NCBI RefSeq assembly: GCF_054482595.1
Contig: NZ_CM137008.1
DNA: 64,000 nucleotides
Reading direction: 5' to 3' (one strand)
Below the pieces are notes generated by a model. That model searched no databases and had not been told where the DNA came from. It worked only from the letters and a program-made list of their open reading frames with translations. Below are positions 18,019-18,328 of this stretch, in pieces (within the stretch, counting starts at the first letter, position 1; each line of letters opens with the position of its first letter). A program made the translations under genes and the position numbers.

Positions 18019-18094
18019 GGCCCTTTAGCTCAGTGGTGAGAGCGAGCGACTCATAATCGCCAGGTCGCTGGTTCAAATCCAGCAAGGGCCACCA
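18019..18094 (+). tRNA. tRNA with CAU anticodon (Ile2/Met-like)
   Basis: GGCCCTTTAGCTCAGTGGTGAGAGCGAGCGACTCATAATCGCCAGGTCGCTGGTTCAAATCCAGCAAGGGCCACCA. Confidence 0.8.
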
Positions 18095-18095
18095 A

Positions 18096-18172
18096 CCGCC
18101 ACTAGCTCATCAGGAAAGAGCGTCAACCCTTTAAGTTGAGTGTGCGAGGTTCGAGTCCCCGGTGGCGGTCCA
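18096..18172 (+). tRNA. tRNA, anticodon read as UUU (Lys) but loop atypical; identity provisional
   Basis: Acceptor CCGCCAC/GTGGCGG, D and T arms, encoded CCA; anticodon loop CCTTTAA with C at position 33. Confidence 0.55.
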
Positions 18173-18174
18173 GT

Positions 18175-18250
18175 GCCGACTTAGCTCAGTAGGTAGAGCA
18201 ACTGACTTGTAATCAGTAGGTCACCAGTTCGATTCCGGTAGTCGGCACCA
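18175..18250 (+). tRNA. tRNA-Thr (UGU)
   Basis: GCCGACTTAGCTCAGTAGGTAGAGCAACTGACTTGTAATCAGT...AGTCGGCACCA. Confidence 0.75.
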
Positions 18251-18253
18251 TAT

Positions 18254-18328
18254 GCGGGCATCGTATAATGGCTATTACCTCAGCCTTCCAAGCTGATGAT
18301 GCGGGTTCGATTCCCGCTGCCCGCTCCA
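18254..18328 (+). tRNA. tRNA-Gly (UCC), glyT-like
   Basis: GCGGGCATCGTATAATGGCTATTACCTCAGCCTTCCAAGCTGATGATGCGGGTTCGATTCCCGCTGCCCGCTCCA. Confidence 0.85.

Follow-up and report, generated by a model that had tools for sequence, protein, structure and literature searches.

The stretch analysed here, a 64,000-nucleotide (nt) window of NCBI RefSeq assembly GCF_054482595.1 (contig NZ_CM137008.1), contains four closely spaced transfer RNA (tRNA) genes at positions 18019-18328, between a Q-type late antiterminator gene and the lysis genes of a lambda-like prophage of E. coli. The array had been described in an earlier note made from the sequence alone, and the coordinates and anticodons given there agreed exactly with those returned by ARAGORN (cat, ttt, tgt and tcc, in order) and by the Rfam tRNA covariance model (RF00005, gathering score 29 bits). 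All four genes are on the + strand. tRNA 1 (18019-18094) has the anticodon CAU and scored 72.5 bits; tRNA 2 (18096-18172), nominally tRNA-Lys(UUU), scored 44.4 bits; tRNA 3 (18175-18250), tRNA-Thr(UGU), scored 73.8 bits; and tRNA 4 (18254-18328), tRNA-Gly(UCC), scored 64.9 bits. The second and third genes, on which the note had staked its claim, were thus accepted by the model with unchanged anticodons. Rfam E-values over the whole 64-kb window ranged from 6e-14 to 3.5e-06, and therefore none of the four is a chance match. The genes are separated by gaps of 1-3 nt, and CCA is encoded in each of them. The irregularities that the note had pointed out were also present in the Rfam alignments and in the sequence: non-canonical T-stem pairs in tRNA 2 (A51.C63) and tRNA 3 (A52.C62), and C at position 33 of tRNA 2.

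The array tRNAs were compared with the K-12 genes from RefSeq and with phage records. tRNA 1 was 100% identical to the annotated ileZ gene (tRNA-Ile) of Stx2a_WGPS8, phage 2851 and the PPompW prophages, and showed 92% identity to ileY and 89.5% to ileX of K-12. The Prokaryotic Genome Annotation Pipeline (PGAP) labels it tRNA-Ile, and the 'Met' in the ARAGORN output is only the literal reading of CAU. Because of its identity to ileZ, its closeness to ileY and its PGAP label, tRNA 1 is assigned to the Ile2 type, predicted to read AUA after lysidine modification of the CAU anticodon, and not to the methionine tRNAs. Its sequence also contains C4-G69 and C5-G68, which we take to be the determinants for TilS.

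tRNAs 3 and 4 were 100% identical to host thrU and glyT, respectively. This identity begins at the first base of each gene and extends through CCA, and the flanks are without homology. As host thrU has the same A.C pair in its T stem, this pair is native to the gene and is not a sign of decay in tRNA 3. The two phage genes are joined by a 3-nt spacer, and tyrU, which separates them in the K-12 operon thrU-tyrU-glyT-thrT (L006), is missing. The Thr-Gly pair was also found alone, behind unrelated upstream sequence, and to judge from these arrangements it behaves as a separable cassette.

Control elements flank the array on both sides. The Q-type gene upstream (17114-17809, +) was identified by PHROG (phrog_304, E=1.5e-108), and the corresponding gene of the near-identical strain Ecol_881 is named 'bacteriophage antitermination protein Q' by PGAP. 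A consensus scan found a candidate late promoter, TTGCAA-17-TATATT (17793-17821, +), overlapping the end of Q, and its placement relative to Q and to the terminator that follows suggests the role of PR'. This tR'-like intrinsic terminator, read from the sequence, is a G+C-rich hairpin at 17873-17900 (AAAACCCGCC..GCGGGTTTT followed by TTGTG). The scan lists it on the - strand, and on the + strand a T run follows the same hairpin. The array has a promoter-like element of its own in the consensus scan, TTGCAA-17-TATTAT (17981-18009, +), followed by the G+C-rich stretch CCTGCGCCC; the whole element, 17981-18018, finishes 1 nt ahead of tRNA 1. Its -10 hexamer (18004-18009) was invariant in 26 loci with a UUU-type tRNA 2, and the -35 hexamer varied in two outliers only. 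Downstream of the array, a scan placed an intrinsic terminator-like site on the + strand at 18536-18561 (GCCCGCTTTTGCGGGT and a T run), ahead of the holin. The lysis cassette (18621-20252, +) encodes a holin, a YdfR-like protein, an endolysin and an Rz spanin according to PHROGs and to PGAP of the near-identical strain. The note's placement of the array, after a tR'-like terminator and between Q and the lysis genes, was thus borne out.

Between tRNA 4 and the downstream terminator lies a structured non-coding spacer with three long hairpins (18329-18535, +), in the place that stx occupies in Shiga toxin (Stx) phages. One of the hairpins is a perfect 15-bp stem (UUAUGAAUGAUCGCC...GGCGAUCAUUCAUAA), and the fold of the spacer together with the downstream terminator (18329-18620) had a minimum free energy (MFE) of -95.5 kcal/mol, with z = -4.9. 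No Rfam match to this structured stretch was found, and the spacer co-occurs mainly with this type of holin, not with the tRNA cassette. No open reading frame (ORF) of 50 amino acids or more lies in 18329-18620, in agreement with the note's statement that no toxin gene follows the tRNAs. A hidden gene for a small toxin or peptide in this position was also considered and ruled out, the only ORFs being of 45 amino acids or fewer, overlapping the hairpins and unsupported.

The earlier note had further equated the position of the array with the slot that carries tRNA genes and stx in Stx phages. This correspondence is one of homology and not of analogy, because tRNA 1 is ileZ, the two have the promoter-like element in common, and tRNA 2 shows 82-84% identity to argN. 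In a distant BLAST search against 50,697 phage records, tRNAs 1-3 aligned to ileZ-argN-argO arrays with 80-87% identity. The promoter-like element is conserved in PPompW and phage 2851 and partly in Stx2a_WGPS8, and in a multiple alignment the element, ileZ and the slot-2 gene formed a single shared unit. As in Stx2a_WGPS8 (AP012540) and phage 2851 (FM180578), the array follows Q and precedes the late and lysis genes, with the same upstream element, an identical ileZ and a homologous second gene. It differs from the Stx-phage module in gene 2 (UUU with C33 here, UCG there), in gene 3 (argO with anticodon UCU there, precise copies of thrU and glyT here) and in the structured spacer that stands in place of stx. 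With UUU, UGU and UCC after the first gene, and no ORF of 50 amino acids or more behind them, it is not itself a module of the Arg(UCG)-Arg(UCU)-stx kind. Statements on the tRNA content of Stx phages are taken from GenBank annotations and general knowledge; nothing relevant on ileZ, argN or argO was found in the open-access literature searched, and the classical Stx-phage papers lie outside that set. On these alignments the array is a cassette variant of the ileZ-argN-argO module, and the homology of the stx slot is real.

The slot is modular, with a conserved promoter and ileZ unit and a varied cargo: argN and argO, the exact thrU-glyT pair, or Asn and Thr tRNAs in phage HK446. The stx position can therefore be regarded as a general cargo site, which is an aid to reading any lambdoid prophage. 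In PPompW prophages of O157-type strains (L002 within LC567818, 3097-3172 and 3344-4802) we observed a recombinant array of ileZ, a UUU/C33 gene and argO. The UUU/C33 gene has a 1-nt deletion in the D stem, and ISEc20 is inserted immediately downstream, where lysis genes are expected. The PPompW array is probably a decayed version of the module.

Taken together, these features make it probable that the array, located in the late-regulatory region of the 39-kb lambdoid prophage, is a four-tRNA operon made up of a rare-codon set and a doubtful fourth member. In a lysogen the four tRNAs would be transcribed from the array's own sigma-70-type promoter (17981-18009) as far as the terminator at 18536-18561, leaving the lysis genes silent. 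Once the prophage is induced, Q-modified RNA polymerase that has started at PR' would read through tR', the tRNA genes and the second terminator, and the tRNAs would be co-produced with the late mRNA. They would presumably be released by host processing enzymes such as RNase P. The Ile2, Thr and Gly tRNAs would then increase decoding capacity for those A-ending codons that the host seldom uses and that show some enrichment in phage genes.

Codon usage was compared between the phage genes and 17 flanking host genes. ACA occurred at 14.3 per 1000 codons in the late genes and at 8.7 in the host genes, GGA at 13.2 and 9.4 per 1000, respectively, and AUA made up 12% of Ile codons in the late genes against 9% in the host genes. 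In the early genes all three were enriched as a share of their codon family (AUA p=0.04, ACA p=0.001, GGA p=0.008). This comparison, which the note had suggested, supported AUA, ACA and GGA weakly to moderately and did not support AAA, which accounts for 65% of Lys codons in the late genes and 74% in the host genes. Supplementation of rare codons is thus a reasonable purpose for tRNAs 1, 3 and 4, modestly supported, and as the reason for a lysine tRNA it was ruled out, because AAA is not enriched. Several points weigh against the operon reading as a whole. The enrichment in late genes was not significant when expressed as a share of the codon family, and the host reference comprises those 17 flanking genes only. 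The promoter and both terminators are recognised solely by their match to consensus, and expression, processing and charging of the array are predicted.

Sister arrays that carry Arg(UCU) in slot 2 cover AUA, AGA, ACA and GGA. A comparable set has been assembled by engineering in the rare-codon 'Sixpack' expression strain, which carries argX, glyT, leuW and proL along with argU and ileX (PMC12053594). The logic is the same and the genes are partly so (glyT, an ileX-type gene and, in the sister arrays, an argU-type Arg(UCU)). The phage array differs in being a natural, phage-borne operon tied to late transcription and in including thrU and an aberrant slot-2 gene.

The array itself is ordinary, and its one interesting member is tRNA 2. 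The anticodon loop of this tRNA is CCUUUAA (C32, C33, U34 U35 U36, A37, A38); it has U73 and an encoded CCA, and A20 is kept in the D loop (AUCAGGAAA). Its 82-84% identity is to argN of Stx phages, which has the anticodon UCG, and it is less than 63% identical to host lysT. A search with an argN-type 5'-half pattern, which fixes the first 32 nt, found at least 120 viral contigs in which the only common anticodons were UCG and UUU, the latter always with C33 among the matches listed. We also sampled arrays by their thrU-glyT junction, a procedure that leaves tRNA 2 unbiased. Among 118 such arrays slot 2 was of the UUU/C33 type in 49 and Arg(UCU) in 37; the others had a degenerate loop (eight), 'AAA' (two), UUA (one), no slot-2 tRNA (three) or the Thr-Gly pair only (18).

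In the Arg(UCU) form the anticodon stem UCAAC/GUUGA, identical to that of tRNA 2, bears the canonical loop CUUCUAA. This form occurs in the sister arrays Ile2-Arg(UCU)-Thr(UGU)-Gly(UCC) of E. coli prophages (IMG/VR L135, L145 and L192), which share gene order and the thrU-glyT junction with the array described here. Their slot-2 gene differs in having U33 and C35, a fully paired T stem and higher covariance scores. Between tRNA 2 and its nearest UCU relative there are seven differences, two of them in the compensated pair 4/69 and the others at positions 26, 32, 33, 35 and 63. By this comparison tRNA 2 is a phage Arg-family (argN-type) tRNA in which the changes U33C and C35U gave a nominal lysine anticodon. 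The T-stem mismatch A51.C63 is likewise attributed to a change, T63C, since the UCU relatives have an A-U pair there. The acceptor, D and T arms and A20 of tRNA 2 are those of the phage Arg family, and because it has U35 in place of C35 it should not be filed as an arginine tRNA. It has the UUU anticodon and the U36-A37-A38 of a tRNA-Lys(UUU), and lacks U33, a Lys-type body and A73. The note's suggestion that tRNAs 2 and 3 may be diverged therefore holds in part: tRNA 3 is identical to thrU, and tRNA 2 has changed, but as a member of the Arg family rather than as a diverged lysine tRNA. Descent from host tRNA-Lys was ruled out by the Arg-family backbone and the low identity to lysT. A role as a suppressor or frameshift tRNA was dropped, as a 7-nt loop on a 5-bp stem puts UUU squarely at positions 34-36.

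Slot-2 variants on a related backbone, with a 4-bp anticodon stem, were observed in some Thr-Gly arrays (L183 at about 3700-3770 on the - strand, L164, L222 and L143). Their loops are UUA, nominally an ochre-suppressor anticodon (one copy), AAA (two copies) and 6-nt degenerate forms (eight copies), and the variants of L183 and L143 score under the Rfam tRNA threshold. In slot 2 generally, the anticodon arm changes far more than the acceptor, D and T arms. The slot can be viewed as a natural experiment in which the backbone stays constant while the anticodon changes (UCG, UCU, UUU/C33, UUA and degenerate loops).

We lean towards the view that tRNA 2 is a weak or non-functional derivative that is kept by linkage in a tightly packed operon. 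A73 is the discriminator base by which E. coli tRNA-Lys is recognised as a lysine tRNA, and U73 of tRNA 2 is not. C33 was present in all UUU-type copies examined. U33 is near-invariant in elongator tRNAs, C33 being found essentially only in eukaryotic initiators (PMC5041475), and a weaker U-turn, on which decoding depends, is expected with C33 (PMC5041475, PMC13276492). In 52 junction-sampled arrays tRNA 2 had 11 variable sites and a 7-nt deletion over 77 nt, compared with one variable site out of 76 in tRNA 1 (p=0.002). Common E. coli haplotypes of tRNA 2 carry U8C, C11U, G18A, D-stem breaks or an A30C mismatch and are mostly uncalled by PGAP. The one that was scored (L232, with C4U, U8C and C11U) fell below the Rfam threshold, and some copies are, by these changes, visibly decaying. 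Canonical UCU relatives scored 53.5-56.4 bits in the RF00005 model, compared with 44.4 bits for tRNA 2. Codon supplementation, as noted above, gives no support to a lysine tRNA here.

Other observations speak for a tRNA that still works. The polymorphism of tRNA 2 was not significantly above that of tRNAs 3 and 4 together (11 of 123 sites; p=0.17), and its score of 44.4 bits exceeds that of a bona fide argN of an Stx phage (43.0 bits in phage 2851). The major haplotype, with all four stems and the CCA end intact, accounts for 38 of the 52 copies, and the CCUUUAA loop is kept in every diverged copy examined. The U36-A37-A38 that tRNA 2 has retained is the determinant for t6A37, and base 33 is not among the positions read by the bacterial enzyme (PMC13276492). 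Folding was assessed as the energy gap between the cloverleaf and the MFE structure, as plain MFE prediction gives no cloverleaf even for tRNA 3, which is identical to thrU, or for tRNA 1, which is identical to ileZ. The gap was 2.7 kcal/mol for tRNA 2, within the 0.9-3.8 kcal/mol of its neighbours and close to the 2.2 kcal/mol of host lysT. Across 24 distinct sequences of the tRNA 2 family pairing in the cloverleaf amounted to 96.4%, and in three cases both partners of a pair had changed; no such double changes were seen in a control in which the 3' partners were slid by 1-3 columns. If tRNA 2 is dead, the consequence is one of annotation: a gene that PGAP calls 'tRNA-Lys' in one of these prophages should not be taken to add to the capacity for decoding lysine codons.

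The retained stems, CCA end and U36A37A38 of the major haplotype, and the presence of a tRNA for AAA that codon supplementation does not explain, would also fit a working lysine tRNA. Such a tRNA could have arisen when the anticodon of a non-host backbone was switched, and could have been selected to escape cleavage of host tRNA-Lys(UUU) by PARIS AriB, PrrC or RloC, and so to sustain phage translation. AriB cuts host Lys(UUU), Thr(UGU) and Asn(GUU) tRNAs between C40 and A41, recognising U36-A-A-U39-C40-A41 together with U16; cleavage is lost with the change U39A and impaired with A41C or U16C (PMC12409363). tRNA 2 has C16 and UAAGUU at positions 36-41, where host lysT has U16 and UAAUCA, so that none of the published AriB determinants (16, 39 and 41) is shared by the two. 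PrrC cuts immediately 3' of U33 (PMC2610378), and C33 at this scissile bond may block PrrC too. Phage tRNA-Lys variants have been found to rescue infection from PARIS (PMC11464382) and from PrrC170 (PMC11555353). The tRNA-Lys(UUU) of the virulent phage T5, which neutralises PARIS, resembles tRNA 2 in being a phage-encoded UUU tRNA that differs from that of the host at positions 16, 39 and 41 (PMC12409363). The T5 tRNA is experimentally functional and resistant, whereas tRNA 2, known from its sequence alone, belongs to a temperate phage and has an Arg-family backbone, C33 and U73.

However, C16, G39 and U41 come with the Arg-family backbone and are not specific to the UUU form. Being inherited, they are in themselves no evidence of adaptation. 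U73, which is not the lysine discriminator, and C33, with its expected effect on the U-turn, both argue against a lysine tRNA that decodes, as do the raised polymorphism and the frequent damaged haplotypes. A report of U33C blocking PrrC was not found in the accessible literature. The exact UUU/C33 anticodon arm had no match among the GTDB species representatives, so it is a young form restricted to E. coli. We consider counter-defence by tRNA 2 unlikely. It is similarly doubtful that a temperate lambdoid phage has turned its own Arg tRNA (UCU to UUU) into a tRNA-Lys on a foreign body that AriB cannot recognise (C16, G39, U40, U41). If it has, the anticodon switch would be a counter-defence borne by prophages in roughly 1/7 to 1/12 of E. 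coli genomes. tRNA 2 would then be a working bacterial elongator tRNA with C33, and a cheap test case for the compatibility of C33 with elongation. A functional tRNA 2 would also extend tRNase-evading phage tRNAs from large virulent phages to common temperate prophages.

The specificities of the array invite a wider explanation of the same kind, in which all four genes form a counter-defence kit against ABC-ATPase/TOPRIM tRNases such as PARIS and P2 Old and replenish the tRNAs that these deplete. PARIS depletes Lys(UUU), Thr(UGU) and Asn(GUU) (PMC12409363). P2 Old restricts lambda and HK97, and the tRNAs that it depletes are Thr(UGU), Gly(UCC), fMet, Val(UAC) and Pro(UGG) (bioRxiv 10.64898/2026.07.10.737580). 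Three of the four array specificities fall within the combined target set, although the hypergeometric probability of this overlap (P about 0.01-0.02) was calculated post hoc. A precedent in the same slot is provided by the lambdoid phage HK446 (L242, NC_019714), in which ARAGORN found unannotated Asn(GUU) and Thr(UGU) genes at 35097-35171 and 35177-35252, between PR' and the holin. These genes have diverged strongly from their host counterparts, and their specificities match two of the three main AriB targets, Thr(UGU) being also a target of Old. The HK446 Thr tRNA counters P2 Old experimentally (bioRxiv 10.64898/2026.07.10.737580), and this precedent bears on tRNA 2 as well as on the array.

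The protective HK446 Thr tRNA, however, differs from thrU at 26 of 76 positions, whereas tRNAs 3 and 4 are identical to host molecules and should therefore be as cleavable as the host pool. Expression of E. coli Thr(UGU) gave no rescue from Old (bioRxiv 10.64898/2026.07.10.737580), and E. coli tRNA-Lys gave little rescue from PrrC170 (PMC11555353). HK446 and the array thus have the slot and a Thr(UGU) gene in common, and differ in that the HK446 gene is diverged and protects, while the array copy is identical to a host tRNA that did not. The sister arrays with Arg(UCU), which cover AUA, AGA, ACA and GGA, also look like a rare-codon kit. We regard a defence role for the whole array as improbable, and prefer the reading of a rare-codon operon with one doubtful member.

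The distribution of the array was determined in 5,426 complete E. coli genomes. A 771-bp region comprising it was present in approximately 463 of them, annotated as Ile-Lys-Thr-Gly, and close relatives of tRNA 2 were present in approximately 796. Three sequenced phages, vB_EcoM-606R7, vB_EcoS-689R5 and PhiR47_1, carry the array at 98-100% identity. Among GTDB species representatives exact ileZ was found in three Escherichia-type contigs only, each with the classical arrangement of Arg genes. Lambdoid and Stx phages are already known to carry tRNA cassettes downstream of Q, and this array is automatically annotated in hundreds of RefSeq genomes. No paper on an Ile-Lys-Thr-Gly array in lambdoid prophages, or on the origin of its 'Lys' gene, was found in the open-access literature searched.

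The prophage as a whole is lambda-like, approximately 39 kb long (about 4198-43251) and integrated at serU. A script search found a 31-bp exact direct repeat at its ends, with the attL core at 4167-4197, in the 3' end of serU, and the attR core at 43221-43251. PHROG assignments gave the order integrase, RusA, Q-type antiterminator, tRNA array, holin, endolysin, Rz spanin and terminase. Over 28.8 kb the window shares 99.4% identity with E. coli Ecol_881, whose PGAP gene order is the same. Integration into a tRNA gene raises the possibility of tRNA-dependent lysogeny, documented for mycobacteriophages (PMC10865867), in which phage tRNAs stand in for a host tRNA gene that integration has destroyed. 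We give this virtually no credence, and it was rejected: the 31-bp att core rebuilds serU (tRNA-Ser, cga; 4108-4197), which was called intact by ARAGORN and by Rfam (57 bits), and there is no Ser tRNA among the four.

Several RNA elements were noted elsewhere in the prophage. The PR'-to-tR' transcript region (17828-17900) contains a weak isrK-like Rfam match at 17850-17898 (15.7 bits, E=0.85). The sister locus L135 has a full isrK match (77.5 bits, 2963-3039), together with matches to C4 antisense RNA and sRNA-Xcc1, about 1.1 kb upstream of its tRNA array. The DicF small RNA (sRNA; 76.7 bits) lies at 8623-8674 on the - strand, with dicB annotated nearby in the near-identical strain, and sok antitoxin RNA (112.4 bits) lies at 14264-14439 on the + strand, adjoining a gene annotated hokD in that strain. 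DicF/dicB and sok/hokD make up a Qin/Rac-like cargo set concerned with cell division and toxin-antitoxin functions. A full-length match to Rfam IS009 (222.3 bits; 42602-42800, +) lies within the last late ORF (42259-42843), just before attR. In the host flanks, rseX (52976-53065, -), the DsrA sRNA (61421-61507, +) and a tRNA-Asn gene (3041-3116, -) were found, and mtfA adjoins serU; from these neighbours the prophage can be assigned to the serU locus of the E. coli chromosome.

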